From Escherichia coli (GTDB taxonomy: Bacteria > Pseudomonadota > Gammaproteobacteria > Enterobacterales > Enterobacteriaceae), in NCBI RefSeq assembly GCF_013122565.1, contig NZ_CP053258.1: a stretch of DNA of 64,000 nucleotides. One strand, 5' to 3'. This document shows positions 11,277-31,761 of the stretch, piece by piece. Under the pieces are notes generated by a model. It was not told the origin of the DNA. It saw only the letters and a list, made by a program, of their open reading frames with translations, and did not search any database. How positions within the stretch are numbered: position 1 is the first letter of the stretch; the number at the start of each line of letters is the position of its first letter. The position numbers and the translations under genes are program-made.

Positions 11277-12770
11277 TCAGTCTTTCAATGGACGTAATTC
11301 ATTGTTGTAACTGGTGTAACTGCCTTCAACGGTAAGTAGATTGCCGTTTTCATCAAGATGCGCCGCATTGAGTTGTCGAGTTTCATTACGCCGCTTCGCA
11401 TCACGAACCAGCCCATCGCCTACGTAATAAATATAGTGGTCATCATGAGCAAAGGTATCTGATAATTGACCATTGGCGTATTTAAACCACGTCCATTGGC
11501 CTTTAAGCTCAAATTTCTCAACCGTGTCTTTATCAATAAAATACGTATAGCGATCGTCATGTGCCAAATAATTTAATGTTGTGCCATCGGGGCTTTTATA
11601 CCACTGCCATTGCCCATTGATATCAAAAATAGTCACATCATCCCTTGCAAGGAAATAAACTTTATTCCCTACAACATTAGCACCTTCCTGTAATTCTTGT
11701 TGCGGGTCTGGTAAATGAATGACCGAAAGCGTTTTTTCGACCGCAGAAATATACTTCACCAGATAGAGCGAATCTTTATATTGCGCCACATTCTTCGTCA
11801 GCGGGCGAAAATATTCCGGATCAACATCAGGAATGGTCGCAACCCGGCAGTCATTGGCACGCCAGGAAGCATCACGCGTCATCCAGGTTACTTTATCCCG
11901 CTGTAGGTCAAATGTATTCCGGCAATCTTTACCGAACGAATAACGTTTCTCCCCGTCCTTATCGCGATAAATCAGCAGGGAACCGGCTATCCAGCGCACA
12001 ATATGAAAGGTGTCCGGATCGGCGTCGATGGCATCTCCGTTCACAAAGACCTGCGATTTTGTCCGCCAGATTGTATCCCAGGGTGCGGGATGCCCCCAAC
12101 TTTCACAACTGTTTGGCAAATAAAGAATATTCCGTTGGGCCCAGGGTTTAATATCAAGAATAGAATATCCTTGGGTACTACCCAACCAGCGTCCCTGAAA
12201 GTAAAGATTGCGACGATCTTTCAGCACATCCGCGGAATCAACTGAATTCATCCTCCCCCCCACCTGTTGCAGCGAATCCATATCGACCTGCTTTTCGCCG
12301 TGATTATCATCCGTGCGTTCGCCGTCAAAATAGAGGCTGTCTTTATCGGCAGCAAAACGCCCCCATGCGCGGAATGTTGCGGCATCGACTTTCGGTGTTC
12401 CCGGCGGGTTCTGAACTATTTTCCCTGCCCATAAAATATGGCGACCATCGGTCAACCAGTCGAAACGCCAACTGCTGTTAGTTCTGATATTAGTGCCAGC
12501 ATCTACCTGAACAAAATCATTATTGATATCATCAGGAGAATCATATTTATCATCAGTGCCGTTGGGTACGCGGCGAAGTTGCTTAAACTTCACCTGCGAT
12601 AAATGAATATCCGGAAAATAGAGTCCGTAACCATCACTATCTTCAACGATATATTTTGTGCCTTGCCCCCACGGCTGGTAGTAAAACGCAGCATAAGGCA
12701 CACCAGAGCAAGCTATTGAAGCGGTTGAAAATAAAGCCAGTGCGAGACAAACAGGTTTAATTGGCAACAT
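11277..12770 (-). CDS. Secreted repeat protein, paralogue A (DKNYY-like repeats), function unknown
   Basis: 497 aa; N-terminal signal peptide MLPIKPVCLALALFSTASIACSG; repeated D-K-x-x-LYF/DA-x-TF blocks; ATG with AGGA RBS. Confidence 0.8.
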   Translation of the reverse strand: MLPIKPVCLALALFSTASIACSGVPYAAFYYQPWGQGTKYIVEDSDGYGLYFPDIHLSQVKFKQLRRVPNGTDDKYDSPDDINNDFVQVDAGTNIRTNSSWRFDWLTDGRHILWAGKIVQNPPGTPKVDAATFRAWGRFAADKDSLYFDGERTDDNHGEKQVDMDSLQQVGGRMNSVDSADVLKDRRNLYFQGRWLGSTQGYSILDIKPWAQRNILYLPNSCESWGHPAPWDTIWRTKSQVFVNGDAIDADPDTFHIVRWIAGSLLIYRDKDGEKRYSFGKDCRNTFDLQRDKVTWMTRDASWRANDCRVATIPDVDPEYFRPLTKNVAQYKDSLYLVKYISAVEKTLSVIHLPDPQQELQEGANVVGNKVYFLARDDVTIFDINGQWQWYKSPDGTTLNYLAHDDRYTYFIDKDTVEKFELKGQWTWFKYANGQLSDTFAHDDHYIYYVGDGLVRDAKRRNETRQLNAAHLDENGNLLTVEGSYTSYNNELRPLKD

Positions 12771-13960: not shown

Positions 13961-14079
13961 AGTGATCTCTGAAATGAGTGGCAAAGATCCACAGTAAGTC
14001 CGCGCCTGGGGGGATGTCGATGACGGTAAGTTTTTTTAGGAATGTATAAAGACAAAGGAGATTGCTGACAAAGTGAGCT

Positions 14080-14190
<111 letters not shown>

Positions 14191-14226
14191 TGCGCCTGAA
14201 AGACACCCGCAGGTGCCTTAGCGGCA

Positions 14227-15630
14227 TTACTTCGCCATGCGTTTTTTACCAATAAACAACCAGCCCAGCCCCAACGCGATAAACCACAGCGGGGTGACCA
14301 GCAGCGCCTGGCGGGTATCATCTTCCAGCGTCAGCAGCACGATCACAAACACAAAGAACGCCATGCATACCCAGCACATCAGCTTGCCGAGCGGCATCTT
14401 GTAGATCGACTTCTCATGCAGATGAGGACGCTGTTTGCGATACACCAGGTACGAGCAAAGGATAATCGTCCAGACGAACATAAACAGAATCGCGGAAACG
14501 GTTGTAATCATCGTGAACGCGCCAATCACGCTAGGATTCACATACAACATCACCACGCCGCCGAGCAGACAGATACACGAGAAGGTCAATCCTTTCGCGG
14601 GTACTGCGCGCTTAGAAAGTTTAGCGAACGCTTTCGGCGCAACACCTTCCTGCGCCAGACCAAACAGCATACGGCTGGTAGAGAAGACACCGCTGTTAGC
14701 GGAAGACGCCGCAGAGGTCAGCACCACAAAGTTGATCACGCTGGCAGCCGCAGGCAAACCTACCAACACAAACAGTTCAACAAACGGGCTTTTCTCCGGG
14801 ACTACCGAACTCCACGGCGTCACGGACATAATCACAATCAGCGCGAAGACGTAGAACATAATGATACGGATCGGAATGGAGTTAATCGCGCGTGGCAGTG
14901 ATTTCTCTGGATCTTTGGTTTCCGCAGCTGTTGTACCTACCAGCTCAATCCCCACGAAAGCGAAAACCGCTATCTGGAATCCGGCAAAGAAGCCACTTAA
15001 ACCTTTCGGGAACCAGCCGCCGTCATTCCACAAATGCGCGAATGACGCTTCCACACCAGTCGGTGACTGAAAGTGCATCGCCACCATGACCAGGCCGACG
15101 ACAATCAGCGACACAATGGCGACGATTTTGATCATCGCAAACCAGAACTCCATCTCACCGAACATTTTCACGGTGGCGAGGTTAAGCGTCAGCAGCAGCA
15201 CTATCACCGCCAGCGAGGCGACCCAGTCGGAGAGATCGGGGAACCAGAACTGAGCATAAGCCGTGATCGCCACCACGTCTGCCATACCGGTTACAACCCA
15301 GCAGAACCAGTAAGTCCAGCCGGTGAAATATCCTGCCCACGGCCCGAGTAAATCGGAAGCGAAGTCACTAAAAGATTTGTATTCCAGATTCGAAAGCAGC
15401 AATTCCCCCATTGCCCGCATCACGAAAAAGAGCATAAAACCAATGATCATATAAACGAAAATGATCGACGGCCCGGCAAGGCTAATCGTTTTGCCAGACC
15501 CCATAAACAACCCCGTACCAATGGCACCGCCAATGGCAATAAGCTGAATATGTCGGTTTGTGAGATTGCGCCGTAGCGACTGTTCAGCCGGAGCCTGATC
15601 ATCGGCAACGACTTTTACCTGATCTACCAT
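14227..15630 (-). CDS. cycA: D-serine/D-alanine/glycine transporter CycA (APC family)
   Basis: 467 aa ORF MVDQVKVVADDQAPAEQSLRRNLTNRHIQLIAIGGAIGTGLFMGSGK... Confidence 0.93.
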   Translation of the reverse strand: MVDQVKVVADDQAPAEQSLRRNLTNRHIQLIAIGGAIGTGLFMGSGKTISLAGPSIIFVYMIIGFMLFFVMRAMGELLLSNLEYKSFSDFASDLLGPWAGYFTGWTYWFCWVVTGMADVVAITAYAQFWFPDLSDWVASLAVIVLLLTLNLATVKMFGEMEFWFAMIKIVAIVSLIVVGLVMVAMHFQSPTGVEASFAHLWNDGGWFPKGLSGFFAGFQIAVFAFVGIELVGTTAAETKDPEKSLPRAINSIPIRIIMFYVFALIVIMSVTPWSSVVPEKSPFVELFVLVGLPAAASVINFVVLTSAASSANSGVFSTSRMLFGLAQEGVAPKAFAKLSKRAVPAKGLTFSCICLLGGVVMLYVNPSVIGAFTMITTVSAILFMFVWTIILCSYLVYRKQRPHLHEKSIYKMPLGKLMCWVCMAFFVFVIVLLTLEDDTRQALLVTPLWFIALGLGWLFIGKKRMAK

Positions 15631-15938
15631 GTTTTTTTCTTCCTGTACCTGTCTGTGTTGTTCAGGCTCTACGGCCTTTAGTCAGTCTATGATACGACGA
15701 ATCTGTATCGGGACTCATCGATATTAGGTAACAATACGCGGGATGAATACTAAGATTTAGATCTAATGTTAATTTTATGTTTAAAGTGAGTGTCATATCA
15801 CGGTGATAACGCGAAACAGCTCACAAAAATACACGCTTACGGGGTCTTTGCAACACAAAATAGCGCCGTTTGGCAAACTGAAGGGTTTATTGCTGAATGC
15901 CTGCTCCCCTCTGGTTCGAGGGGAACAGAATGCGCTGC

Positions 15939-16559
15939 TTAGAGGATTTCCAGCAGTTCGACTTCAAACACCAGGGTGCTGAACGGAGGGATGGATGCGC
16001 CTGCACCGCGCTCGCCATATGCCAGTTCCTGCGGGATAGTCAGTTCCCATTTAGAACCTACCGGCATCAGAGTCAGTGCTTCAATCCAGCCAGGGATCAC
16101 GCCATTAACCGGAAATTCAGCGGGTTCACCACGAGCAACGGAGCTGTCAAACACGGTGCCGTCGATCAGTTTACCGGTGTAATGAACACGAACGCGGTCG
16201 GTACGTGCCGGAATTGCGCCTTCACCCTGGTTGATCACGCGGAATTGCAGGCCAGATTCGGTGCTATTCACACCTTCTTTTTTGGCGTTTTCTTCCAGGT
16301 ATTTCACACCTTCAGCAGCCATCGCCTGGAAACGCTGACGACGAACGGCATCGGCGCGCTCGTGGATTTCACGCAGCGCGCGATGCACCACATCAACCGG
16401 AACAGCCGGATGTTTGCCTTCCAGCGCATCGGCAATACCTGCAACCAGTGCTTCTGGCAGCAGCCCTTCCAGGCCAGATTCACTCAGTTGTTGCCCTACC
16501 TGCAAACCAATGCCGTAGCTTGCTTGCGCTTCGATGGTGTCAAAAGTTGGGGTGGTCAT
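15939..16559 (-). CDS. fklB: FKBP-type peptidyl-prolyl cis-trans isomerase FklB
   Basis: 206 aa from [25 protein letters not shown]; FKBP C-terminal domain. Confidence 0.92.
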
Positions 16560-16777
16560 CGTATTTCCTTTCTTAGGGTATAAAAGTAGCGGGCAGCATA
16601 TCAGCCACACTTCTTTGGGTAAAACTTTGTCGCAGGAATGATGACAAATCCCGGGGAAAAAGAAACAATAGCAATATCCCGTATGAATATAATAAAGGCG
16701 GGTTTACCACGGACATCATAGCGTTAGCTTATTCATAGGCTATGATTGAGGAACAAGACGCGGAGCAGGAGGAAACC

Positions 16778-17416
16778 ATGCCCGGGCGCTTTGAACTAAA
16801 ACCAACCCTGGAGAAAGTCTGGCACGCGCCGGACAATTTTCGCTTCATGGACCCGCTGCCGCCGATGCATCGTCGGGGGATCATTATTGCCGCCATTGTA
16901 TTGGTGGTCGGATTTCTGCTTCCATCTGATGATACGCCCAACGCGCCGGTGGTGACGCGTGAAGCGCAGTTAGATATTCAGTCGCAATCACAACCGCCGA
17001 CAGAAGAACAGCTGCGGGCGCAATTAGTCACACCACAAAATGATCCTGATCAGGTGGCTCCGGTCGCTCCAGAACCTATACAGGAAGGCCAGCCAGAAGA
17101 ACAGCCGCAAACTACCCAAACGCAACCATTCCAGCCAGATAGCGGAATTGATAATCAATGGCGCTCTTACCGTGTCGAACCCGGTAAAACGATGGCGCAG
17201 CTGTTCCGCGACCACGGACTGCCCGCTACCGATGTCTATGCAATGGCGCAGGTAGAAGGCGCGGGTAAGCCGCTGAGTAATTTGCAAAACGGGCAGATGG
17301 TGAAAATCCGCCAGAACGCCAGCGGCGTGGTGACGGGCTTAACCATTGATACGGGGAATAATCAACAGGTCCTGTTTACCCGTCAGCCGGATGGCAGTTT
17401 TATTCGCGCGCGGTAG
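16778..17416 (+). CDS. ytfB: Cell-division-associated OapA/LysM-domain protein YtfB
   Basis: 212 aa from MPGRFELKPTLEKVW (GGAGCAGGAGG RBS); proline/glutamine-rich linker; synteny after fklB. Confidence 0.88.
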   Translation: MPGRFELKPTLEKVWHAPDNFRFMDPLPPMHRRGIIIAAIVLVVGFLLPSDDTPNAPVVTREAQLDIQSQSQPPTEEQLRAQLVTPQNDPDQVAPVAPEPIQEGQPEEQPQTTQTQPFQPDSGIDNQWRSYRVEPGKTMAQLFRDHGLPATDVYAMAQVEGAGKPLSNLQNGQMVKIRQNASGVVTGLTIDTGNNQQVLFTRQPDGSFIRAR

Positions 17417-17428
17417 ATGAATCAACAT

Positions 17429-18064
17429 TCACATGCATGGGGTCACAAGGAGCCAGCTTAAAAGCGTCTCCTTGATAACCTTATGTCTGTTCTCCAAAGC
17501 CTCAGGAGATATCATACTGATGTGATAAACCAACCCTAAAGTATGTTGGTTAAGAATATAATATCCAGCAAGAGCGGCAAGGCTAATGTTTACCTGTAAT
17601 GGATCTATATCTTGCTTAAAGATATTTTGTTTTTTTCCTTCATCAAGCAACCTTTCCATAATCTCTAAATGCGAGTGGTTAATTTCGGGCAAACGAGTTG
17701 ATTTCTTGTAGTGCTCCCCTCGACTTTGGTTTTCGGAATGAATTATCTTTAAAAACCAAGGATTCTTCACATAATAATCCCACGTAAAATCAATAAATTT
17801 TTCAATGGATTGCAATGGGTTTAGTCCAGTAAAGTCCAGATCTCTTTCTTTTTGCCGGATGTCATTACACGTATATTCAAGGACTTCAATAAACAAATTC
17901 TCTTTATTACCAAAATGATGATAAACAGTCTGCTTACTACAACCGGCTGCTTTAACAATATTATCGACCCTGGCACCTTCATAGCCATACTCTGCAAATT
18001 CATTGATAGCGCACAGTAATAATTTTTCTTTCAAAATTTGCACTTTACTAGTATCAAAATACAT
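17429..18064 (-). CDS. TetR/AcrR-family transcriptional regulator
   Basis: N-terminal TetR HTH ([28 protein letters not shown]); AT-rich; start placed at ATG 18064 with GAGGG RBS (track ORF begins at GTG 18070). Confidence 0.85.
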
Positions 18065-18430
18065 CTTCACCCCTCACACTAATCTTGCCAACCTATTATA
18101 TACTCTTTTACCGCGTGACCACGCACATTTTTCATACAAAAATCATCATTATCTTACAGAGCATTAAACCTACTTACATTGTTTCGTTACTGTGAAACAG
18201 ACAGAAAATTTTTCCTTGATGCATATTTGTTAAAAATGGAATATGGCTTTAATTAATTATATTCATATAATGAATATTTAACTATAAATAATTAATTCCA
18301 TTTATTTTCAAAGAGTTATAATTTTAAATATGATCTCCCTCACGAATCAACCAACTAGATGGTTGGTTCAAATAAAATCTATAGGCATCTTTGTCTCCAT
18401 GATGAATCCTGTATTTAAAGAGGTCCAAAA

Positions 18431-19222
18431 ATGAAATCAAAAAAACCCGTTGCTATTATTACCGGTGCTGCCCGTGGTATCGGTAAAGGTTGTGCTATTG
18501 AACTAGCTCGCGCTGGATTTAATCTTCTAATAAATGATCGACCAGATAAAGACAGCATCGAAAAACTTAAAGCAACTCAAAAACTATGTATCGCTGAAGG
18601 TGTTGAAGTCATAACGTTTCCAGCCAACATTGGCGATTTAACGTTACATGAAAAGATGCTCGACGCGGCGCAAAATCAGTGGGAGCGTTTGGACTGCCTG
18701 CTCAATAACGCCGGAATTTCGGTGAAAAAGCGTGGTGATATTCTCGACCTGGAGCCAGACAGTTTCGACGATAACATTGCCATCAATACCCGCGCACCTT
18801 TCTTCCTCGCCCAGGCTTTCAGCAAGCGCCTGTTGGCGCAACCCAAACCAGAAGCTGAACTACCGCATCGCTCAATTATTTTTGTCAGCTCAATTAACGC
18901 CATCATGCTGGCGATGAATCGAGGTGAGTACACCATTGCCAAAACAGCTGTATCTGCCGCTGCCCGCCTGTTTGCCGCACGTCTTTGTGAAGAGCAAATT
19001 GGCGTTTATGAAATCCGCCCAGGTTTAATCAAAACCGATATGACTATTCCAGCAACAGCTTATTACGACGAACTGATCGCTAAGGGGTTAGTGCCATGGG
19101 GTCGTTGGGGTTTTCCACAGGACATCGCCTCCACTGTCCGTGCAATGGCGGAAGGCAAACTGATTTACACCTGTGGTCAGGCGGTCGCCATCGACGGCGG
19201 CTTAAGTATGCCACGCTTCTGA
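18431..19222 (+). CDS. Short-chain dehydrogenase/reductase (SDR) family oxidoreductase
   Basis: TGAARGIGKG nucleotide-binding motif, NNAG, catalytic Y-x3-K (YTIAK). Confidence 0.88.
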   Translation: MKSKKPVAIITGAARGIGKGCAIELARAGFNLLINDRPDKDSIEKLKATQKLCIAEGVEVITFPANIGDLTLHEKMLDAAQNQWERLDCLLNNAGISVKKRGDILDLEPDSFDDNIAINTRAPFFLAQAFSKRLLAQPKPEAELPHRSIIFVSSINAIMLAMNRGEYTIAKTAVSAAARLFAARLCEEQIGVYEIRPGLIKTDMTIPATAYYDELIAKGLVPWGRWGFPQDIASTVRAMAEGKLIYTCGQAVAIDGGLSMPRF

Positions 19223-19231
19223 GGCTGAACC

Positions 19232-20074
19232 ATGAGAGATCTGTTACATCGCCCGGATTTATTCAGCATCAATACCGCGACGCTGGGCTATAAAATGCCT
19301 CTGCCCGCCCTTATTGATGCTTGTGCCGCACGCGGCATCGGTGCGATTGCCCCCTGGCGCAGAGAGTTGCAGAGCGAAGATCTTCAGCAAATCGTCCGCC
19401 AGCTTGCCGCCAATAACATGAGCGTTTCTGGTTTATGCCGTAGCACCTACTACACCGCGCCGACGCTGGCAGAGCGCAAGCTGGCGATTGATGATAACCG
19501 CCGGGCGCTGGACGACGCAGCGATGCTGAACGCCGCCTGTTATATGCAGGTGGTTGGCGGTCTGCCAACGGGCACTAAAGATCTGTATGAAGCGCGGGAG
19601 CAAGTGAAAGAAGGGGTTCGCCAGTTGCTGTCACATTCGAAAGATGTCGGCGTGCCGATTGCACTGGAGCCACTGCACCCGATGACTGCTGCCGATCGCT
19701 CTTGCCTCTGCTCGCTACGTCAGGCGCTGGACTGGTGTGATGAACTCGATCCCGATGGTGAGTTTGGCCTCGGCGTGGCGGTCGATGTCTACCACGTCTG
19801 GTGGGATCCGGATCTCACCAGTCAGATCCTGCGCGCTGGAAAACGGATCCTCGCGTTTCATGTTTCCGACTGGCTGGTGCCGACGACCGATCTGGTCAAT
19901 GATCGGGGAATGCCGGGAGATGGCGTCATCAATATTCCGTCAATTCGTCGGCTGGTTGAAAACGCCGGATTTAATGGTTCTATCGAATTAGAAATATTTT
20001 CTTCATTCTGGTGGGAAAAGAATATCAACCAAATACTGGATAAAAGTATTAACGGACTTTCTTATTATTGTTAA
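19232..20074 (+). CDS. Sugar phosphate isomerase/epimerase-like TIM-barrel protein (xylose isomerase-like fold)
   Basis: 280 aa; family assignment by overall pattern only; 9 bp after SDR stop. Confidence 0.6.
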   Translation: MRDLLHRPDLFSINTATLGYKMPLPALIDACAARGIGAIAPWRRELQSEDLQQIVRQLAANNMSVSGLCRSTYYTAPTLAERKLAIDDNRRALDDAAMLNAACYMQVVGGLPTGTKDLYEAREQVKEGVRQLLSHSKDVGVPIALEPLHPMTAADRSCLCSLRQALDWCDELDPDGEFGLGVAVDVYHVWWDPDLTSQILRAGKRILAFHVSDWLVPTTDLVNDRGMPGDGVINIPSIRRLVENAGFNGSIELEIFSSFWWEKNINQILDKSINGLSYYC

Positions 20075-20223
20075 ACATCACACTATATTTTTCTCTCGAA
20101 ATTAGTTGATTGTTTAAATTTGCATGTTTTAGAAAGTTATGAGTGAAGTAATAAATCAATAAATTAAATATCTTACAGAGCATTGCGAGTGTTAGGTATT
20201 TATAATCAAATAGGGATTGGCAT

Positions 20224-21765
20224 ATGAGCAAGATTAATACTGCAGAAATACTGGTCGCAGGTATTAAAGATGGCGCAACAATCGCCATTAGCGGTAATGG
20301 CGGTGGAATGGTTGAAGCCGATCATCTACTACAAGCTCTGGAAACACGGTTTCTGGAAACCGGGCATCCATGTAACCTTACGCTTATACACTCATTAGGT
20401 GTAGGAGACCGTGAACACAAAGGCAGTAACCGTTTTGCTCATAAAGGAATGTTAAAGCGTGTTATTGCAGGACATTTCACATGGTCACCAAGAATGCAGG
20501 CTCTGGTTAAGAATAATGAGGTCGAGGCTTATTGCTTTCCTAGCGGAGTTATTCAGACATTATTACGTGAAATAGGCGCTGGACGTCCAGGACTGTTCAC
20601 CCATGTCGGGGTAGGAACTTTTATTGATCCGCGTAATGGAGGAGGGAAATCTAATTCACGAACGACAGAGGATCTGGTAGAGCTAATTGAAATTGATGGA
20701 GAAACAAAGCTACGCTATCGCCCATTTAAAGTTGATTACGCAATTGTGCGCGGTACTTATGCGGATTCACGCGGTAATATTAGCCTGGAAGAAGAAGCCG
20801 TCGATCTGGATTGCAATTCTATAGCTCTAGCTGCCCATAATAGCGGTGGTAAAGTCTTTGTGCAGGTACGTGACATTCTTGAAACAGGTGCGATTGAACC
20901 CAGACGAGTAAAAATACCCGGAATCTTAGTCGATGGCGTCGTGGAATATAGAGATCAACAACAAACATATCTTGGTGGTTACGATCTTACTATCAGCGGC
21001 CAGCATCGTCGTCTTTGTTCTCAAAACTCTATTGAACTGGTTTCAAACCCAATACGTCGATTAATTGCACGCCGTGCAGCACGCGAGTTAGTTGCTGGCG
21101 CATCCACAAACTTTGGCTTTGGCATGCCAGGAGGGATCCCAGGTATTGCTCTGCGTGAAGGAGTCCCTTTTGATACCCTTTGGCTCAGCGTGGAACAAGG
21201 TGTGCATAATGGCATGATGCTGGATGATGCTCTGTTTGGCTGTGCTCGCAATGCTGATGCGATAATTCCTTCTCTTGAGCAGTTTGATTTTTATAGTGGT
21301 GGTGGTGCCGATATAACTTTTCTCGGTATGGGGGAAATGGATCAGTATGGAAACGTGAATGTTTCCCATCTCAACAATAACCTTATCGGACCAGGCGGTT
21401 TTATCGAAATTGCACAGAATGCCCATAAAGTGGTGTTCTGCGGCACGTTTGATGCCAAGGGTAGCAAAATAAACGTCACAAATGCGGGCCTGGAAATCAT
21501 TCAATCCGGCCAGGTAGCAAAACTTGTTTCACAAGTAGAAGAGATAACTTTCAGCGGAGAATATGCGCAACAACGTAAACAGGATGTGTTGTACATTACC
21601 GAGCGCGCTGTATTCCAGTTAACGCCACAGGGTGTGGAACTAATTGAGGTTGCCCCTGGCGTGGACATTGACCACGACATTCTGCCGTATATGGCCTTCC
21701 GTCCAATTATCAAGCACCCACGCCTGATGGAAAGTAGTCTGTTTACGCCGATGGAGGATGCATGA
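20224..21765 (+). CDS. Acyl-CoA:acetate/3-ketoacid CoA-transferase, fused alpha-beta (YdiF-like, family I)
   Basis: 513 aa; clear colinear similarity to E. coli YdiF as recalled (GHFTWSPR, GVGTFIDPRNGGGK, FDFYSGGGADITFLGMGEMDQYGNVNVS, ITERAVF). Confidence 0.85.
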   Translation: MSKINTAEILVAGIKDGATIAISGNGGGMVEADHLLQALETRFLETGHPCNLTLIHSLGVGDREHKGSNRFAHKGMLKRVIAGHFTWSPRMQALVKNNEVEAYCFPSGVIQTLLREIGAGRPGLFTHVGVGTFIDPRNGGGKSNSRTTEDLVELIEIDGETKLRYRPFKVDYAIVRGTYADSRGNISLEEEAVDLDCNSIALAAHNSGGKVFVQVRDILETGAIEPRRVKIPGILVDGVVEYRDQQQTYLGGYDLTISGQHRRLCSQNSIELVSNPIRRLIARRAARELVAGASTNFGFGMPGGIPGIALREGVPFDTLWLSVEQGVHNGMMLDDALFGCARNADAIIPSLEQFDFYSGGGADITFLGMGEMDQYGNVNVSHLNNNLIGPGGFIEIAQNAHKVVFCGTFDAKGSKINVTNAGLEIIQSGQVAKLVSQVEEITFSGEYAQQRKQDVLYITERAVFQLTPQGVELIEVAPGVDIDHDILPYMAFRPIIKHPRLMESSLFTPMEDA

Positions 21766-23834
21766 GTCAGCTTGATGACACCATCCTTGATGCGCTGACA
21801 CACGTCACTTTCCCAAAGGGGTTTGTGTCAGCAGAGCCAACACCAATTGTCACCGTTGAGGATGTTGATTACCCGATCTGGCACGTTGATGCGCTGGTCG
21901 TTGGTAGCGGCGCAGCAGGATTACGTGCGGCAGTTGAACTTAAACGCCGCCAGCAAAATGTGCTGATCGCTACCGCCGGGTTATATATGGGGACGTCGGC
22001 ATGTTCTGGTTCCGATAAACAGACACTGTTTACCGCCGCTACCGCGGGCAACGGCGACAACTTCACCAAACTGGCAGAGGCACTGGCGAGCGGTGGGGCG
22101 ATGGATCACGACACCGCTTATGTCGAAGCGGTAGGTTCTCTGCACACTCTAGGCGGGTTGCAATATCTTGGTCTGGAATTACCGGAAGATCGCTATGGCG
22201 CGATTCTTCGTTATCAAACCGACCATGACGAAGCTGGGCGTGCAACCTCGTGTGGGCCGCGTACCTCAAGGTTAATGGTGAAAGTGCTGTTGGAAGAAGT
22301 ACAGCGCCTCGCCATTCCAGTGTTGACCAGTGCAACAGTGATTAAACTGCTGCATCAGCGTGACGAAAACGGCGAAGACCGCGTGGCAGGGGCAATCCTC
22401 GCGACCGGTCATCGCGCCCATAACCCATGGGGGCTGGCAATTGTGACTGCGCCCAATGTGGTACTGGCAACGGGCGGACCGGGCGAGCTTTATCGCGACA
22501 GTGTTTATCCACATAAATGCTTCGGCTCGCTGGGGCTGGCGCTGGAGGAAGGTCTGACGCTAACCAATCTGACCGAAAGCCAGTTTGGTATAGGCACACC
22601 GCGCAGCACGTTTCCGTGGAATTTGTCCGGCACCTATGTGCAGGTGATCCCGTATATCTATTCCGTGGATGCTGAGGGTAACGAGTATAACTTCCTCGCG
22701 GATTACTATCGCACCACCCAAGAGCTGGCTTCAAACATCTTCCGTAAAGGCTATCAGTGGCCGTTCCACGCCACGCGGGTAATGGATTTTGGCTCCAGCT
22801 TGTTAGATATGGCGGTGGCGCAAGAACAGCAACATGGTCGTCTGGTGTTTATGGATTTCAATCGTAATCCTGAAGCGGTGCCTGGTGATCTACCCTTCTC
22901 ATTAGATCGACTGGACGACGACGTTCGCGCGTATCTGGAAAATAACGACGCTCTGGCACCATCGCCCATCGAACGGCTGCAACGAATGAATCCGCTGTCT
23001 ATCTCGCTGTATAAGATGCACGGTTACGATCTCACCACGCAGCCATTGCAGTTTGCCATGAATAATCAGCACATGAATGGCGGCATTGAAGTGGATATCT
23101 GGGGACAAACATCCCTGCCCGGTTGTTTTGCAGTGGGAGAAGTAGCCGGTACTCACGGCGTTACCCGACCTGGCGGCGCGGCGCTGAATGCCGGACAGGT
23201 TTTTGCCGTGCGTCTGGCGCGCTTTATTGGTTGCACACAAAAGCGGTCTGTTGAGGAGGATGTCGCGCAGCTGGTAGCCTCATCTCTGCATATAGTCAGA
23301 GAAGTTATCGCTCAGGCACTGGCAAACGAGAACGGAATGGCGCTGGTAACGGTGAAAGAAAAAATCCAGGCGCGAATGTCTGATTACGCTGGATTTATTT
23401 GTCATGCCGATAAAGTTCGTCACGCCACCCGTGACGCCCTGCTGTTAAGTGAGTTTGTACAACAACACGGTTTGACCATCAAACATGTTGGCGAAATTGC
23501 CGAACTATTTATGTGGCGGCATATGGCACTGACTTCTGCCGCCATATTGACACAATTGACGCATTATATTGACGCAGGTGGCGGCAGTCGTGGGGCGCGG
23601 ATAATTATTGATCACTATGGGGAAGGTCTACCACAAACTCGACAGGGTGCAAAAGAAAAATGGCGTTTTAGATTGGAGTCTGAAAATGAAAGAGAATCAC
23701 GAGCAACGATTCAGCTTAACAATGGAGAATTTATAATAAATAAAAACAAGATACGTCAAATAATCAATTTCAAAAATAATTATTTTGAAAAAAATTGGCC
23801 GGAGTTTCTCCTTGGAGAAATCTATATAAAATAA
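21762..23834 (+). CDS. FAD-dependent oxidoreductase (fumarate reductase/succinate dehydrogenase flavoprotein-like), with unusual AT-rich C-terminal extension
   Basis: N-terminal dinucleotide-binding motif VVGSGAAGLRAA; 690 aa; ATGA start/stop overlap with upstream CoA-transferase. Confidence 0.8.
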   Translation: MSQLDDTILDALTHVTFPKGFVSAEPTPIVTVEDVDYPIWHVDALVVGSGAAGLRAAVELKRRQQNVLIATAGLYMGTSACSGSDKQTLFTAATAGNGDNFTKLAEALASGGAMDHDTAYVEAVGSLHTLGGLQYLGLELPEDRYGAILRYQTDHDEAGRATSCGPRTSRLMVKVLLEEVQRLAIPVLTSATVIKLLHQRDENGEDRVAGAILATGHRAHNPWGLAIVTAPNVVLATGGPGELYRDSVYPHKCFGSLGLALEEGLTLTNLTESQFGIGTPRSTFPWNLSGTYVQVIPYIYSVDAEGNEYNFLADYYRTTQELASNIFRKGYQWPFHATRVMDFGSSLLDMAVAQEQQHGRLVFMDFNRNPEAVPGDLPFSLDRLDDDVRAYLENNDALAPSPIERLQRMNPLSISLYKMHGYDLTTQPLQFAMNNQHMNGGIEVDIWGQTSLPGCFAVGEVAGTHGVTRPGGAALNAGQVFAVRLARFIGCTQKRSVEEDVAQLVASSLHIVREVIAQALANENGMALVTVKEKIQARMSDYAGFICHADKVRHATRDALLLSEFVQQHGLTIKHVGEIAELFMWRHMALTSAAILTQLTHYIDAGGGSRGARIIIDHYGEGLPQTRQGAKEKWRFRLESENERESRATIQLNNGEFIINKNKIRQIINFKNNYFEKNWPEFLLGEIYIK

Positions 23835-23937
23835 ACGCCTTTTAAATCGGTAGCTATTAAATAAATATTTTATGATTTGCAAAATTCACGCTTTTACATT
23901 GTGAGTATTTTCTATTGATAATATCAAAGGTTTAATC

Positions 23938-25218
23938 ATGAAAAAAATCAAGCACTATAGGTGGCATATTATCGTCTTAATATGTTTCATCACTGTAATT
24001 AATTATTTGGACAGAACAGCATTAGGCGTGGCCGCGCCCACAATAATGCAAACGATGGGGATAACTAAAGAGCAATATTCATGGGTTGTCAGTGCATTCC
24101 AGTTAGCATATACAATTGGACAACCTGTAATGGGATTCTTTATTGACCTTATCGGTCTGAAATTTAGCTTTTTCATTTGCATTATAATCTGGGGACTTGC
24201 CACTATGGGGCACGCATTAGCGGGATCCTGGCAAGGTTTGGCCTTTATGCGTGGCCTGATGGGAGTAAGTGAAGCCTCCGTCTTTCCCGCAGGGATAAAG
24301 ACTGTATCGACGTGGTTTCCTGCTAAAGAACGCGGTATTGCTGCGGGATTCTTCAACACGGGTACATCTCTTGGTGCCATGCTTGCTCCACCGCTTATTG
24401 CCTGGTGCATAATGTTCCATAGTTGGCAATTCGCATTTCTGGTTTCTGGCTGTCTGGCATTATTTGCGGCAGTGATGTGGTTTATCTTTTATAAAGACCC
24501 CAAAGATGCCAAAGGACTTTCTGAAGAGGAAAGACACTATATAGAGTCTGGGCAAGAAAAACATCTTGATTCTAATAAAAGTAAAAAAGCAACCATTCTT
24601 CATGTTATTAAAAAACGCAATTTCTGGGGTATTGGCATTACCCGTTTCCTGGCAGAACCAGCTTGGGGAACAATCAACTTTTGGGTACCTATATTTTTCG
24701 TTGAAACATTGCATTTCAGCTTAAAAGATATAGCAATGTTTATCTGGCTCCCGTTTTTATTAGGTGACTTGGGTTGTTTATCTAGTGGTTTTATCGCTAA
24801 GTTTTTTCACGATCGCGGGGTTAGCCTTCTTAATGCACGAAGAATTACATTTACATTCGCTGCAACAACGATGATGTCGATTGGTTTGGTTAGCATCGTC
24901 ACTAATCCGTACATTGCTGTATTACTAATTAGTATCGGTGCATTCTCACATCAATGCCTATCTACTGTTGTTGCCACTATGGGGGCCGATCTTTTTGAAA
25001 AAGAAGAAGTCGCAACAGTAGTTGGATTATCGGGAGGGTGTGGATATACAGGGCAACTGATATTTAATATATTCATTGGTGTATTCGTTGCTGCAATTGG
25101 CTTCTCGACATTCTTTGTGATACTTGCCTTCCTGGATATTATTGGTGCCATTATTTTATGGTCTGTAATTAGACCACCGAAACTTGTTGAACAAACAAAT
25201 TTAGTAACACAATCGTAG
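23938..25218 (+). CDS. MFS transporter, anion:cation symporter (ACS)-like, probable organic-acid permease
   Basis: 426 aa, 12-TM pattern, N-terminal YLDRTALGVAAP motif. Confidence 0.85.
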   Translation: MKKIKHYRWHIIVLICFITVINYLDRTALGVAAPTIMQTMGITKEQYSWVVSAFQLAYTIGQPVMGFFIDLIGLKFSFFICIIIWGLATMGHALAGSWQGLAFMRGLMGVSEASVFPAGIKTVSTWFPAKERGIAAGFFNTGTSLGAMLAPPLIAWCIMFHSWQFAFLVSGCLALFAAVMWFIFYKDPKDAKGLSEEERHYIESGQEKHLDSNKSKKATILHVIKKRNFWGIGITRFLAEPAWGTINFWVPIFFVETLHFSLKDIAMFIWLPFLLGDLGCLSSGFIAKFFHDRGVSLLNARRITFTFAATTMMSIGLVSIVTNPYIAVLLISIGAFSHQCLSTVVATMGADLFEKEEVATVVGLSGGCGYTGQLIFNIFIGVFVAAIGFSTFFVILAFLDIIGAIILWSVIRPPKLVEQTNLVTQS

Positions 25219-25269
25219 TTTTTATTTTTACCTATAGAATTTTAATCGAAAAAAAATAAAGGAAAGATT

Positions 25270-25749
25270 ATGTCTCAAACAGAAATTATTCTTCCTTCAG
25301 GAAGAGAACTTACTCCAGGTGAATATGGTTATGCCAATCTGGAACCTGGCGATCACTACCAGACTCCCGGTCTTAACGTAACAGAGTCACAGATTGTTGC
25401 TTTTGCGGGGATAAGCGGTGATTTTTTCGATGTTCATATGGATGATGAATTTGCAAGGGAAAAAGGATTTCCAGGACGCATTGCCCACGGTCTGTTAGGT
25501 TTAGCATTGACGGACGGCCTGAAGAATCGTTCTATTGTACGTTTACGTGCAGTTGCTACATTAAACTGGAACTGGTCATTCTGTGCACCATTATTGCCTG
25601 GAGATCATATTCACGCCGTTATTACTGTTGTTAAAAAACGCCCCACCAAACGTGAAGACCGAGGCATTGTGACTTTTGCTTTACAATTGTTTAATCAACA
25701 TGGAAAGATAATACAGCGAGGCGAAACTCTGCTGATGATGATGCAATAA
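25270..25749 (+). CDS. MaoC-like (hot-dog fold) dehydratase / enoyl-CoA hydratase
   Basis: 159 aa; GRIAHGLLGLALTDGL hot-dog motif; AGGAAA RBS. Confidence 0.8.
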   Translation: MSQTEIILPSGRELTPGEYGYANLEPGDHYQTPGLNVTESQIVAFAGISGDFFDVHMDDEFAREKGFPGRIAHGLLGLALTDGLKNRSIVRLRAVATLNWNWSFCAPLLPGDHIHAVITVVKKRPTKREDRGIVTFALQLFNQHGKIIQRGETLLMMMQ

Positions 25750-25760
25750 TCTGAGTTTGA

Positions 25761-25797
25761 AATACGTACCAACGAGTATGCTGGTACGTATTTCTTC
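25761..25797. terminator. Intrinsic terminator between convergent catabolic operon and HipA-like gene
   Basis: 10-bp perfect stem aatacgtacc/ggtacgtatt, 12-nt loop, followed by tttcttc. Confidence 0.65.
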
Positions 25798-25868
25798 GCA
25801 AACGCACTGTTTATGCTCTCTCCCTCATAATGACTGTTTCATCTAACTAATATTTCTAAATAACTGTC

Positions 25869-27137
25869 CTAAATTGACGACCTGAATGCCTCTGCCATTA
25901 ACTCTTGCTCACGATCAGGTAATCTAAGACGCTCGGCAATAGTTTGCCACTGACTGACAATCCCTCTAAAATTAGCAATAATGTCATCAGCTTCCGTCAA
26001 ACTAAGTCGAAAATACTCTGCAACTTCTCTAGCTAATTCCAAATCAAGTGCATTATCATTTTCCGTAATATTAAGCTTTAAACCGTCAGATCTGGAAACA
26101 GGATTCAAATCATATGCTTCAGAAAGCCGCCAACCTTTTCCCGGTATCAAGATATATCCATGATTACGTAAATGATCATCGGTATTAGAAACAAGAATAT
26201 TAAAAACAATTCTGGACCAGAGTTCTTTAAGGTCAGTATTGGTCTGCGCTCCGTGCCTGATAAGAACATCTGCTAATTCCAGATAACTTACACCTGTAGA
26301 GGCATCTTCACCATCCTGATGTCTGGTTAGTGTCATAGCCGAAGCAAAATGCAGACGCCTTCCCGCATTAGTGCGGTCAAAACGACGAACCATAAAACAA
26401 TGGTAATTGCTGGCAAATTTATGCGCCTGAGCAGGTGCAACATTCAGTCCACAGCCAACAGCAAGCGCATTAACGACCATTTCCCATCCACCAACATCAT
26501 ACTCATCTTTTGCACTGGGAAATTTAGCGATGTAAAGATGTCCGGCTTCATCAACCACACTGGCTTTTGGACGTGCACCCCCTAATGATCCCCCCGGAGC
26601 GATTAGCATTCTTAACCATTTTTGCCCCATGAGTTCTTTATTATCAGGATCTTCTTCAATTGCCCGGCTAGCCCTTTCCAGACTCGCTATTTCGGTAAAT
26701 GGTGGGGCTGCAACATTAATGCGGTTATCAAGAAACTCTCCAGCGTCTTCACGTTTGTATCGAAGAGCCCCAACCCGATAAAGATCATGAACACCTAATA
26801 GATAGTCAGACTCATAAAGGTGGGAGTCTTTATCAAATAACCCATCTCGAATATCCCTCTCAAAACGACGCTTCATTAGCATACGCCCCCAACGATCCGG
26901 GCAGGAATCACTAAACGCACCAAATTTATCCTTTGGAGGAATTGGGTACTGTGCTCCCTCATACAACATTATTTCAGGATCTAACTGAATGAAATTAAGT
27001 GCACGATCTGCAAGCGCCTTTTTATCGTACTCAAACTCAAATATCTCACGCGCCCGAGTGCGACGACTGTGTAAATAACCAATACGCGCAGGACCATCCA
27101 GGCCTTCCCAATCCGCATACACTCCGATTAATGCCAT
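25869..27137 (-). CDS. HipA-family serine/threonine kinase (type II toxin-like)
   Basis: 422 aa; P-loop-like GGSLGGARPK and catalytic NTDDHLRNHG motifs in HipA order; AAGGA RBS. Confidence 0.8.
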   Translation of the reverse strand: MALIGVYADWEGLDGPARIGYLHSRRTRAREIFEFEYDKKALADRALNFIQLDPEIMLYEGAQYPIPPKDKFGAFSDSCPDRWGRMLMKRRFERDIRDGLFDKDSHLYESDYLLGVHDLYRVGALRYKREDAGEFLDNRINVAAPPFTEIASLERASRAIEEDPDNKELMGQKWLRMLIAPGGSLGGARPKASVVDEAGHLYIAKFPSAKDEYDVGGWEMVVNALAVGCGLNVAPAQAHKFASNYHCFMVRRFDRTNAGRRLHFASAMTLTRHQDGEDASTGVSYLELADVLIRHGAQTNTDLKELWSRIVFNILVSNTDDHLRNHGYILIPGKGWRLSEAYDLNPVSRSDGLKLNITENDNALDLELAREVAEYFRLSLTEADDIIANFRGIVSQWQTIAERLRLPDREQELMAEAFRSSI

Positions 27138-27150
27138 AATTAATTTCCTT

Positions 27151-27642
27151 TTATCGGTTTTTTATCGGTTTTTTTATCGGTTGTAATAGTGCAGCAAGAG
27201 AGGTTGACGTTTCCCCTGGAATAGTTGGCGTTGAGTCTTTTGCCAGTGCTGTTAAATCCGTGGTGAGATGACCTTCTTTCTCGCGTTTCGTCTGAAATGA
27301 GGCTGTCTGAATCCCTTCTTCATTCTTAACTGATGAACGAGAAAGCCCTCTTTTTTTAATCAAACGGGAATCCTGGAGCTGATGCCCTAAGGCGTCTTCA
27401 GCTGCAAGCTTATTTAAATCCGTTTCCAGGCCCAAAACCTGCATCACAGACAAATATGCCCCTATCGTGACCCCTGCACTTCCTGCCTCCAGAGAACGCA
27501 ATGTGATTGGCGACATCCCTGCACGCTCAGCAACTTGCTTTGCGGTTAGCTTACGTCGTAAACGAGCAAGTTTCAGACGCTCACCAAATTCACTAAGCAT
27601 CTGATTCGTATAAGGGAGTAACGGTGCTGTTTTTTTACCCAT
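27151..27642 (-). CDS. XRE-family HTH protein (HipB-like putative antitoxin) with long low-complexity C-terminal tail
   Basis: 163 aa; HTH ~residues 16-75 ([23 protein letters not shown]); 13 bp upstream of kinase gene on same strand. Confidence 0.75.
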
Positions 27643-27663
27643 AGTGATAATATTTTATCTTTT

Positions 27664-27682
27664 TATGGCTATGATAGCCATA
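27664..27682. promoter_or_regulatory. Palindromic candidate operator upstream of the HTH/kinase operon
   Basis: tatggctat-g-atagccata, 9-bp perfect inverted arms, ~22 bp upstream of HTH start codon. Confidence 0.55.
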
Positions 27683-28000
27683 ATATTAGCATTTATTAGA
27701 TTGAACGCACCTGCAAAGCGTTCAGAATTATGGAAGAGATAATATCTTATCTTTTTATATATAAAAACAATAAAATAACAGCACATTAATATATAACTTA
27801 TTGTTTTTATTATCTTACAAGGGAGACACTCGCTGTATTGATGCTTTTGTCGTGTTTTATGTGTAAAAAACATGACACGAACTACCAGCGGCGAGACTGG
27901 GGGCTGGGGGCCTGGTATGGGTACTGCGAACTTTTTATAAAAGGAATAGCAAGAGATTTATGGAGGGAACGTCTATTTCTGCGGTTTTTATCACTTAAAA

Positions 28001-28030
28001 GCAAAACGCCGACCAATGGTCGGCGTTTTT
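28001..28030. terminator. Intrinsic terminator downstream of rplI (rpsF operon)
   Basis: Stem aacgccgacc/ggtcggcgtt with 4-nt loop, flanked by A-run and T-run (bidirectional capable). Confidence 0.8.
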
Positions 28031-28050
28031 ACGTCTCGTTGAATAACGAA

Positions 28051-28512
<462 letters not shown>

Positions 28513-28541
28513 TCAAAGTCGTATTAATGGACCGTGACCGA

Positions 28542-29088
<547 letters not shown>

Positions 29089-29094
29089 CAGAAA

Positions 29095-29508
<414 letters not shown>

Positions 29509-29816
29509 TTATTCAGCCTCCTGTCTGGGTCAGCCGAATCCCGGGGAGGCAAGGAACGTGTTAAAGGTCGGCTGAAAAATGACGCGTTATAGTACTGACA
29601 TACCCCGCTAAACTCAAGGGCAGAGCCGAAATAAATCTCCCCTTTCGCAAATAACCTCTAAACCGCTGATTTGGAGTTCATCACACTTCATCATGGTGTT
29701 TTTTCGAACAACTGCATCAGAAATGGTCACCATCAACTTCTTTATCATTGATTAAAATTAAATCAGAAGATCATCACAGAGGAGAGCACACAAAGTCAGC
29801 CGTCGAGGAGGTATCT

Positions 29817-30092
29817 ATGTTCAGTCGAGTTTTAGCCCTTCTGGCTGTGCTTTTGCTAAGTGCAAATACATGGGCAGCCATTGAAATTAATAACCACCAG
29901 GCTAGAAATATGGACGATGTGCAAAGCTTAGGCGTGATTTATATCAATCATAATTTCGCCACTGAAAGTGAAGCACGTCAGGCATTAAATGAAGAAACAG
30001 ATGCGCAGGGCGCAACGTACTACCACGTAATTCTGATGCGGGAACCGGGGAGTAACGGCAATATGCACGCCAGCGCGGATATTTATCGCTAG
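29817..30092 (+). CDS. yjfY: DUF1471-family periplasmic small protein YjfY
   Basis: 91 aa from MFSRVLALLAVLLLSANTWA signal peptide; GAGGAGG RBS. Confidence 0.85.
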   Translation: MFSRVLALLAVLLLSANTWAAIEINNHQARNMDDVQSLGVIYINHNFATESEARQALNEETDAQGATYYHVILMREPGSNGNMHASADIYR

Positions 30093-30132
30093 CACCAGGT
30101 ATAACCAACGAAACATTGCCATAGTTTGCTTT

Positions 30133-30157
30133 GCCCCCTTCGCAGGGGGCTTTTTTT
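30133..30157 (+). terminator. Intrinsic terminator after yjfY
   Basis: gcccccttcgcagggggc hairpin followed by ttttttt. Confidence 0.85.
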
Positions 30158-30220
30158 GAAAAACGGCTGCGGAATTAGACCAGTTATCTCCCGAGGAAGG
30201 AAATTTCCGCAGCGCGTGTT

Positions 30221-30907
30221 TTACTTCTGCCCGTAATAAGCGTTAGGACCGTGTTTACGCATGAAGTGTTTATTCATCAGGAAGCTGTCGATGTGATTGA
30301 GTTGTGGGTTAATACTGCGCGCAATCCACGCCATTTTCGCCACTTCTTCCATCACCACCGCGTTATGCACCGCATCGTGGGCATCTTTCCCCCAGGCGAA
30401 CGGTCCGTGCTGATACACCACAATTCCCGGCGTATGCAGCGGCTCGGCGTTGCCCAGCGTTTCGATAATCACTTTGCCAGTGTTCAGTTCATACTCGCCC
30501 TGCACCTCTTCTTCGCTTAACCCGCGCGTACACGGGATGTCGCCAAAGAAGTAGTCGGCGTGCGTGGTGCCTAACGCCGGGATCGCCAGCCCCGCCTGCG
30601 CCCATGCGGTGGCATGAGTGGAGTGGGTATGGACAATGCCGCCAAGCGACGAGTAACGACGGTAGAGTTCAAGATGCGTTGCGATGTCGGAAGACGGACG
30701 ATATTCCCCTTCCACTACCTTGCCGCTCATATCAACTACCACCATATCGTCTGCTTTCATGGTTTCATAGGCGACACCGCTGGGCTTGATCACCACCAGC
30801 CCGCGTTCGCGGTCAATGGCACTAACGTTACCCCAGGTAAAGGTCACCAGCCCATAGCGCGGCAGATCCATGTTGGCTTCAAACACCTGCTGTTTCAGGT
30901 TTTGCAT
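30221..30907 (-). CDS. ulaF: L-ribulose-5-phosphate 4-epimerase UlaF
   Basis: 228 aa class II aldolase/adducin family; last gene of ula operon; 1-nt overlap with ulaE. Confidence 0.92.
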
Positions 30908-31761
30908 TATGCCGCCTCCACCATGCCTGCTTTAACCATGCGCGCTTTCACCCAATCGCGCGCTTTCGCCACTTCTGCCGCCGGGTCTTCCGCCGTTTCG
31001 CTCCACATCTCAATCAGGTACGGCCCGCAATAGCCACTCTGTTTGAGCGTTTCGAAGCAACGTTCGAAATCCACTACGCCTTCACCAAACGGCACGTTTT
31101 TAAAGACGCCCGGTTTAGTGTCTTTCACATGCACCGCAACGATATGCCCGATTCCGGCCTGCAATTCCATCTGCACGTCGTTATCCCACGCCGACAGGTT
31201 GCCAATGTCCGGATAAAGCTGGAACCACGGATTGTTGAGATAGTGCGCGTAGCCCAGCGCCTTGCTGATGGAGTTCATCAACGGGTAATCCATGATCTCC
31301 ATCGCCAGCGTCACCTGCGCGCGGCTTGCCATCTCAACGCTCTCTTTCAGCCCGTCACGGAAACGACGACGCGTTTCGTTATTGGCTTCCTGATAGTAAA
31401 CGTCATAACCCGCCAGTTGGATCACGCGAATGCCGACATCCTGGGCGAACTGGATAGCTTTACGCATAATCTCCAGCCCCTGCGCCCGCACTGCGTCATC
31501 TTCGCTGCCCAGCGGGAAACGACGATGGGCAGAAAGGCACATGGACGGCACACGCACGCCGGTTTCAACAATCGCGTTGACCAGCGCCAGACGCTGCTCG
31601 CGACTCCAGTCGAGGCGCGAAAGGCGCTCGTCCGTTTCATCTACCGACATCTCGACAAAATCGAAACCTAACGTTTTTGCCAGTTGCAGCCGTTCCAGCC
31701 AGCACTCCCCGGCGGGGAGCGCTTTTTCATAGATACCAAGCGGGATTTGTTTGGACAACAT
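30907..31761 (-). CDS. ulaE: L-ribulose-5-phosphate 3-epimerase UlaE
   Basis: 284 aa xylose isomerase-like TIM barrel; operon position. Confidence 0.92.

Follow-up and report, generated by a model that had tools for sequence, protein, structure and literature searches.

What is the AT-rich stretch that separates an operon for a HipBA-type toxin-antitoxin module from the ribosomal protein gene rplI in this Escherichia coli chromosome, and why does it part there from the sequence of strain K-12? A sequence-only reading of the window (the whole stretch of 64,000 nucleotides analysed here, identified as E. coli from 99.5% identity to many genomes of this species over 44-48 kb) had described positions 27683-28000 as an AT-rich spacer with an isolated G-run and nothing but spurious open reading frames, and had interpreted it as the probable right-hand insertion boundary of an island as well as the promoter region of an operon coding for a helix-turn-helix (HTH) protein and a kinase. 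Our analyses confirm the observation as a whole and support the interpretation in part. With a probability of roughly 75%, the interval belongs to a composite non-coding region consisting of the control region of the HipBA operon, an Escherichia-specific stretch that carries a slippage duplication, and the edge of the rplI terminator.

Composition and content of the intergenic region

The intergenic region proper extends from 27643 to 28050, between the HTH gene (27151-27642) and rplI (28051-28500), both on the minus strand. Its GC content is 34.6% over 27683-28000 vs 49.4% for the whole window, which places this interval among the lowest 3.5% of 318-nt windows, and it is 27.3% over 27643-27880, among the lowest 0.6%. 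The description of the spacer as AT-rich is thus accurate, as is the statement that its open reading frames are spurious, the interval holding only short ones that are specific to single haplotypes. Neither the IHF consensus nor a Chi site occurs in the spacer, PADLOC made no defence-system assignment, and an Rfam 15 scan of 27000-28700 at permissive E-values yielded no family at gathering score, the top hit (AgrB, 32.4 bits vs a cut-off of 40) sitting on the terminator hairpin. An independent short-read assembly (Logan SRR11451224) was identical in the spacer over the aligned 27600-28055, including the duplicated G-run, so this duplication is not an artefact of the assembly under study.

The operon next to the spacer comprises a HipB-like HTH antitoxin/repressor gene of 163 amino acids (27151-27642, minus strand; Pfam HTH_31/HTH_3) and a gene of 422 amino acids for a HipA-like Ser/Thr kinase, the toxin of the module (25869-27137, minus strand; Pfam HipA_C, E 8e-47). 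The two genes lie 13 nt apart on the same strand with the HTH gene upstream, an order in which a HipA homologue directly follows the HTH homologue in most of the 80 loci encoding HTH relatives that we fetched from other genera, Serratia, Erwinia, Atlantibacter, Azotobacter, Pseudomonas, Burkholderia and Achromobacter among them. Residues 1-98 of the HTH protein align with PDB 9u9g ('XRE family transcriptional regulator, HipB', 153 amino acids), a member of the same antitoxin subfamily, from residue 1 of the latter (E 2e-29), and this supports 27642 as the position of the start codon. The kinase is under strong constraint relative to its B2 allele (dN/dS about 0.09).

Two palindromic operators upstream of the HTH gene

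Homologous loci in many Proteobacteria share an inverted repeat, TGCTAATATT-N27-AATATTAGCA, ending 1-2 nt before the ATG of the HTH gene. A strict match to it was found in 57 of 82 loci, in 56 of them with the 27-nt spacing, and in none of 1640 shuffles. A weight matrix was derived from 62 unique proximal sites in other genera, E. coli being excluded; in a scan of the window with it, two sites stood out, scoring 53.9 and 29.0 bits, while the next best of the 127,896 positions in the 64 kb reached 0.3 bits. The first of these, O1 (27642-27694, minus strand), has its arms at 27645-27654 and 27682-27691, reads TGCTAATATT, 27 nt, AATATTATCA, and stops 2 nt short of the ATG. The second, O2 (27734-27786, minus strand; arms at 27737-27746 and 27774-27783), is a degenerate copy that mismatches at 5 of 20 arm positions and is centred 92 bp from O1. 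A 24-nt direct repeat (27643-27666 and 27735-27758) corresponds to the right arms of the two operators. The same layout recurs across the family: a proximal site was detected in 77 of 81 loci, and 54 of the 81 have a distal site too, at a distance of 71-156 bp. In 1.27 Mb of sequence, 259 positions scored at least 12 bits, both strands counted, and nearly all of them were palindromic upstream sites.

Within O1, the left arm overlaps a predicted extended -10 promoter element, TGCTAATAT (27683-27691, minus strand), which was recognised by pattern match and agrees with the family consensus TGCTATTAT. A promoter scan of the minus strand yielded no canonical -35/-10 pair, so that the extended -10 is the sole element on which the predicted promoter is based. 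Between the arms, an inner palindrome, TTATGGCTAT-G-ATAGCCATAA (27663-27683), was read from the sequence and forms part of inverted repeat I2. The two operators are separated by a segment (27695-27733) with a small hairpin (GAACGC at 27703-27708, GCGTTC at 27718-27723).

Sequence conservation follows this organization. O1 together with the first 43 coding nucleotides shows 0 of 96 differences from the B2 allele (dS 0.14), and O1 differs from E. albertii at 4 of 53 positions, where the synonymous expectation (pS) is about 0.25. The inter-operator segment, in contrast, differs at 5 of 39 positions from B2 and at 11 of 39 from E. albertii, about the neutral rate. The invariance of O1 next to a neutrally diverging segment agrees with a control-region reading.

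From these features we infer that 27642-27786 is the autoregulatory control region of a minus-strand HipB/HipA-type toxin-antitoxin operon with two long palindromic operators, where the HTH protein, alone or with the kinase, would bind O1 and O2 and shut off its own promoter. As the left arm of O1 appears to double as the extended -10 element, a bound repressor would occlude the promoter. The proposal that the promoter region of the HTH/kinase operon lies here is supported; the AT-rich stretch does not, however, merely separate the HTH promoter from the rplI terminator, as had been supposed, its first part being the promoter-operator region itself.

Two further peculiarities of this segment were observed. 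Strain EC23HZZ201 (locus L003, about 12011-12034) has lost precisely the 92 bp that separate the right arm of O1 from that of O2, equivalent to window positions 27667-27758, and one hybrid operator of 34 bits remains; in the same strain hipA is broken into two short open reading frames. In addition, a perfect 13-bp inverted repeat, ATAAAAACAATAA / TTATTGTTTTTAT (27761-27773 and 27798-27810), brackets the distal arm of O2; since E. albertii retains only its right arm, the pairing is probably not functional.

Comparison with the hipBA operators of K-12

The K-12 HipB operator has the consensus TATCC-N8-GGATA, to which no match with up to two mismatches occurs in 27600-28050. The arms found here are instead TGCTAATATT and AATATTAGCA, with 27 nt between them in a 47-bp site, and the two sites are 92 bp apart. 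Other differences from the K-12 system are that the proximal site stops 2 nt before the ATG, that the antitoxin is 163 amino acids long with a fast-evolving C-terminal half, and that the kinase matches HipA_C only, its best NCBIfam hit, YjjJ, being far below the cut-off. Judging from their sequence, the operators of the window thus belong to a different family from those of K-12 HipB.

The likenesses concern the overall plan. As in K-12 hipBA, the HTH antitoxin gene stands directly upstream of the gene for a HipA-family kinase, and the promoter is overlapped and preceded by several palindromic sites, an arrangement that by analogy would imply autorepression. Binding of HipB to palindromic operators in the K-12 hipBA promoter-operator region is described in PMC8262856. 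A literature search on the locus, the operator motif and PDB 9u9g found nothing relevant.

As a junction or a spacer, the region is ordinary. Its interest lies in the definition of a conserved two-operator control region for a widespread and uncharacterised HipB/HipA subfamily, which ranges over Escherichia, Serratia, Erwinia, Pseudomonas, Burkholderia and others, and which provides a handle for work on binding and regulation. Within E. coli it is carried by about a fifth of the complete genomes, most of them from extraintestinal pathogenic lineages.

The antitoxin itself evolves unevenly. Its N-terminal HTH part has a dN/dS of about 0.18, and other genera conserve well only residues 1-95 or so, whereas the C-terminal half (27151-27357, roughly 68 residues) evolves fast (dN/dS about 0.8 vs B2). 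The exact HTH protein of the window was encountered in only two contigs of a large assembly collection.

An Escherichia-specific stretch between the operators and the terminator

The remaining 211 bp (27787-27997) were compared among four haplotypes, namely those of the window, B2 strains, EC23HZZ201 and E. albertii. No similarity to this stretch was detected, as DNA or in six-frame translation, in the 80 related loci or in the rest of the window. A scan of genome contigs found no Escherichia species representative with the module and only distant relatives, which are informative for the operators and not for the distal spacer. The Salmonella copy of the module and the copies in loci L166 and L167 have both operators followed by unrelated sequence, so that the 211 bp are tied to the Escherichia copy and not to the module as such. 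A plasmid collection showed similarity to the coding region and O1 only, in Azotobacter and Pantoea, besides one E. coli record of 834 kb labelled as a plasmid.

Relative to E. albertii, the distal region shows 22 differences in 199 positions, where about 50 would be expected from synonymous sites (about 25%); by this measure it is not neutral and evolves at about half the synonymous rate. The indels that distinguish the four haplotypes are of 7, 4, 1, 2 and 1 bp, none of them a multiple of three, and no open reading frame of at least 18 codons is common to all haplotypes, length and frame shifting each time. The best-conserved block, AACTTATTGTTTTTATTATCTTACAAGGGAGA (27796-27826, 31 bp), is nearly invariant in the four haplotypes and is possibly a promoter on either strand; a weak promoter-like match on the plus strand (27786-27813) overlaps it. 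Further on, an 11-bp hairpin, TGTCGTGTTTT / AAAACATGACA (27848-27877, plus strand; inverted repeat I14), has a stem that is fixed in the four haplotypes save for one G-U to A-U change, around an 8-nt loop that differs in each. The last part of the stretch, the rplI-proximal tail (27931-27997), is found in B2, EC23HZZ201 and E. albertii, where it varies by indels of 1 and 2 bp, and is absent from K-12, EA7 and MSB1_4I.

Several candidates for a function of this stretch were tried and rejected. An open reading frame from the ATG at 27872 has 22, 39, 28 or 20 codons according to the haplotype, with different frames and C-termini and no Shine-Dalgarno sequence; a 30-codon frame in B2 varies in the same way in its frames and ends. 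Nor could the hairpin at 27848-27877 be an intrinsic terminator, as no U-tract follows it. A conserved RNA structure over 27815-28000 was discarded because no compensatory pairs occur and the plus-strand fold has a z of only -2.1 without the terminator; on the minus strand the fold gives z = -1.0.

A 9-codon frame (27837-27866: ATT GAT GCT TTT GTC GTG TTT TAT GTG TAA) was also noted behind AAGGGAG (27819-27825). It overlaps the left arm and loop of the hairpin, whose right arm contains the ATG at 27872. The first codon of the frame is ATT in E. coli and ATG in E. albertii, where AAAGGAG precedes it by 7 nt.

The distal 211 bp might be thought to encode a small RNA on the plus strand that has escaped annotation, or else a leader mini-ORF followed by a short downstream frame; the unit would run from near 27820 to the bidirectional rplI terminator and might derive from the toxin-antitoxin module or serve it as an accessory. 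The slowed evolution of the region would suit such a unit, as would the conservation of the Shine-Dalgarno-like motif, the persistence of the 9-codon frame in all four haplotypes, the position of the ATG at 27872 within a conserved hairpin stem, and the plus-strand fold score. Each of these has its counterpart, however. The mini-peptide, read from the alignment, has accumulated 2 synonymous vs 5 non-synonymous changes and is hence not conserved, and three of the four haplotypes have a non-standard start; the downstream frame keeps neither its length nor its phase; several of the predicted base pairs are broken and none is compensated; and a promoter-like match that would drive the unit (TTAATA-16-TATTAT, 27786-27813) is weak and no commoner than in shuffles. 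With no Rfam family at gathering score either, and with no annotation in the spacer among the 60 B2 records listed, of the 1046 genomes that have it, we consider such a unit quite unlikely. The broader proposition that the distal 211 bp are a so far overlooked regulatory unit of the plus strand (leader peptide or small RNA), one that accompanies this HipBA subfamily in Escherichia, is speculative and unlikely; so is a separate one, that the 47-bp operator, whose arm centres lie 37 bp apart, reflects an undescribed mode of DNA recognition by HipB.

Under the composite reading, 27787-27997 is probably non-coding sequence specific to Escherichia with a minor function, which would stay attached to the cassette, being moderately conserved and tolerating indels that are not multiples of three.

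The G-rich patch as an indel hot spot

The patch that had been singled out as GC-rich is real: it extends over 27881-27930 (66% GC), reaches 80.8% GC at 27890-27915 and contains an exact tandem repeat of CTGGGGG (2.1 copies, two of them at 27897-27910). Comparison of the haplotypes shows that B2 and EC23HZZ201 have a single copy, GA-GGCTGGGGGCC, where the window has GAGACTGGGGGCTGGGGGCC, and that E. albertii has a different indel at the same place, GGCTGGGGAGCC. Versions with a higher copy number were not encountered: when metagenomes were scanned for the G-run in at least two copies, all 72 matches proved unrelated to the spacer. Neither a gene nor a promoter overlaps the repeat. On this comparison the patch appears as a small indel hot spot, and the state of the window as a lineage-specific 7-bp tandem duplication, most simply explained by replication slippage. 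The eye-catching G-run would then be a neutral-looking duplication and not a signal.

It could be argued that the C-rich complement of the patch acts on minus-strand RNA as a Rho-utilisation site, or as an insulator of another kind, that blocks read-through from the strongly expressed operon rpsF-rplI into the toxin-antitoxin operon. The patch does lie between the rplI terminator and the operators, its plus strand has 22 G vs 9-11 C per 50 nt, which makes the minus-strand RNA rich in C and poor in G, and its core GGCTGGGG is kept in the four haplotypes. This skew is nevertheless found only in the top 1% or so of 50-nt windows, the patch is short (about 45 nt) and tolerates indels of 7 bp and 1 bp, and the rplI terminator is itself strong, all of which makes a role of this kind very unlikely.

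The boundary with the rplI terminator

The terminator of rplI, which the sequence-only reading had placed next to the spacer, is a genuine intrinsic terminator (28003-28029, minus strand), with a 12-bp stem in which 7 of 12 pairs are G-C, followed by TTTTGCTTTT; on the plus strand the hairpin is followed by T5. The boundary between haplotype-specific and common E. coli sequence falls at 27997/27998, with the switch at AAAGCAAAACGCC, and the core side of it is matched by 5425 of 5426 E. coli genomes. Alignment of K-12-type sequence to the window covers 16000-17811 and restarts at 27998 (99.7% identity), five bases before the terminator stem, with nothing between. The claim that similarity to K-12 stops here is therefore correct, and a search for continuous alignment of the spacer with K-12 found none.

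The same switch at 27998 was read at the sequence level in the K-12-type, EA7, B2, EC23HZZ201 and window haplotypes, and this base is the end of the terminator U-tract on the rplI strand. What adjoins it on the other side varies, with at least four different contents across E. coli strains. In K-12 the gap is filled by yjfZ, a gene present in 2539 of 5426 complete E. coli genomes; in EA7 a gene for a transporter (MFS) leads directly up to this core base; MSB1_4I has a transporter, then yjfZ, an IS4 and rplI; B2-type strains have a TRAP transporter and then the same HipA-HTH-spacer cassette, which they share with the window over 25849-27997 at 94.8% identity; and EC23HZZ201 has the gene order of the window with a degraded hipA. 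Of the 5426 complete genomes, 1046 have the spacer, always in single copy, on the chromosome and adjoining rplI. That several contents meet at 27998 fits the edge of a conserved rplI terminator better than an attachment site. From 27998 onward lies the conserved terminator, and to its left, according to the strain, HipBA, yjfZ, a transporter gene alone or IS4.

A right-hand attachment scar, left by site-specific insertion of a mobile island beside the rplI terminator, is very unlikely: three unrelated sequences do meet the core at one base, a 9-mer (CTTAAAAGC) does span the junction and recur at 17457, and a homologous module in Salmonella does sit amid mobile-element genes, but there is no integrase, insertion sequence or tRNA, the 9-mer is at chance level with its left copy lying off both the K-12 breakpoint (17811) and the boundary of the B2 module (25849), the cassette is always single-copy at one chromosomal site, the arrangement recurs in E. 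albertii with divergence at the species level, and the end of the terminator U-tract is where purifying selection is expected to stop.

The haplotype that the window presents between ytfB and rplI (17300-27997) is rare and divergent. None of the 5426 complete genomes has it exactly; it is at best 90% identical to one of them, EC23HZZ201, and 82-86% identical to the common operon haplotypes, and its flanks are at least 99.5% identical to E. coli. In MSB1_4I, the IS4 element (locus L085, 2141-3487) interrupts the rplI terminator region in its left half, and similarity to the window resumes only from 28010.

Age and polarity of the locus

An HTH protein 88% identical to that of the window is encoded on E. 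albertii contigs, in the order rplI, 400-bp spacer, HTH, HipA, MaoC, MFS, FAD-binding protein and CoA transferase, which is the architecture of the window. The E. albertii spacer is colinear with that of the window over its full length. At synonymous sites, the window and E. albertii have diverged by 0.31 in hipA and by 0.30 in the nearby core gene ulaF, with 0.59 for MaoC; divergence at the species level indicates that the common arrangement is old and not the result of recent transfer. On these sequence comparisons, the HipBA arrangement would be at least as old as the split between E. coli and E. albertii, or exchanged between them. The suggestion that the spacer marks a right-hand insertion boundary is not supported, as the same colinear arrangement, spacer included, is found in E. 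albertii.

The left side of the locus leads to the same polarity. The left breakpoint with K-12 is at window position 17811, inside a TetR gene, and not at 17417-17440 as had been proposed; K-12 ytfA is annotated as a TetR gene without its N-terminus. Taken together, the E. albertii synteny and this TetR remnant point to K-12 as the derived state, and we infer, from one outgroup species, that K-12 is a deletion or replacement derivative. Its truncated TetR gene ytfA and yjfZ would together constitute this derived state, and the reading of the locus is corrected to an old HipBA state common to E. albertii.

If the HipBA arrangement is ancestral, no mobility mechanism is needed. The absence of an integrase, tRNA or insertion sequence, already remarked upon from the sequence, is borne out in that no tRNA was found in 14000-31000, no integrase or insertion-sequence annotation in the homologous loci of three E. 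coli strains (2017.09.02CC and EC23HZZ201 among them), and, in a Pfam scan of eight window open reading frames, only metabolic, transporter, regulator and toxin-antitoxin domains, one short frame giving no hit. The direct repeat that an insertion might have left was sought between 17417-17440 and the junction. The longest word common to the two is the 9-mer at 17457 and 27994, which coincides with no haplotype breakpoint, and a word of at least 9 nt arose in 11 of 300 shuffles; the repeat was accordingly rejected.

Replacement hot spots between conserved core genes occur in E. coli. The slot between ytfB/TetR and rplI resembles them in having alternative contents by strain and no mobility genes. 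It differs in that the state of the window, one of the alternatives, is common to E. albertii, which makes the polymorphism an old one that was not recently acquired.

The TetR gene is intact in the window (17429-18070), and ytfA (locus L002, 4516-4917) corresponds to its 3' part, K-12 having lost the TetR N-terminal part and the whole metabolic operon.

Relatives of the module and its surroundings

In Salmonella enterica (locus L162, 1-8486), an HTH and HipA module with 70% identity lies amid genes for AbiEii, an autotransporter, AcaB, DUF3158 and DUF3577, surroundings of a mobile-element type which indicate that the module moves in other genera.

An extra gene for tryptophan-tRNA ligase (trpS) precedes a close relative of the module in two loci (L166, 281-1282; L167, 282-1282), matching TIGR00233 over the cut-off with 211.6 bits, the L167 copy being frameshifted. 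As a general feature of the module this gene was rejected, only 2 of 91 loci having it. PMC8262856 lists TrpS as the target of the HipT kinases of hipBST systems, and by analogy the extra trpS may hint at the target of the kinase.

Finally, the MaoC and hipA genes converge on a perfect 12-bp inverted repeat, AAATACGTACCA ... TGGTACGTATTT (25760-25793), which is probably a bidirectional terminator.
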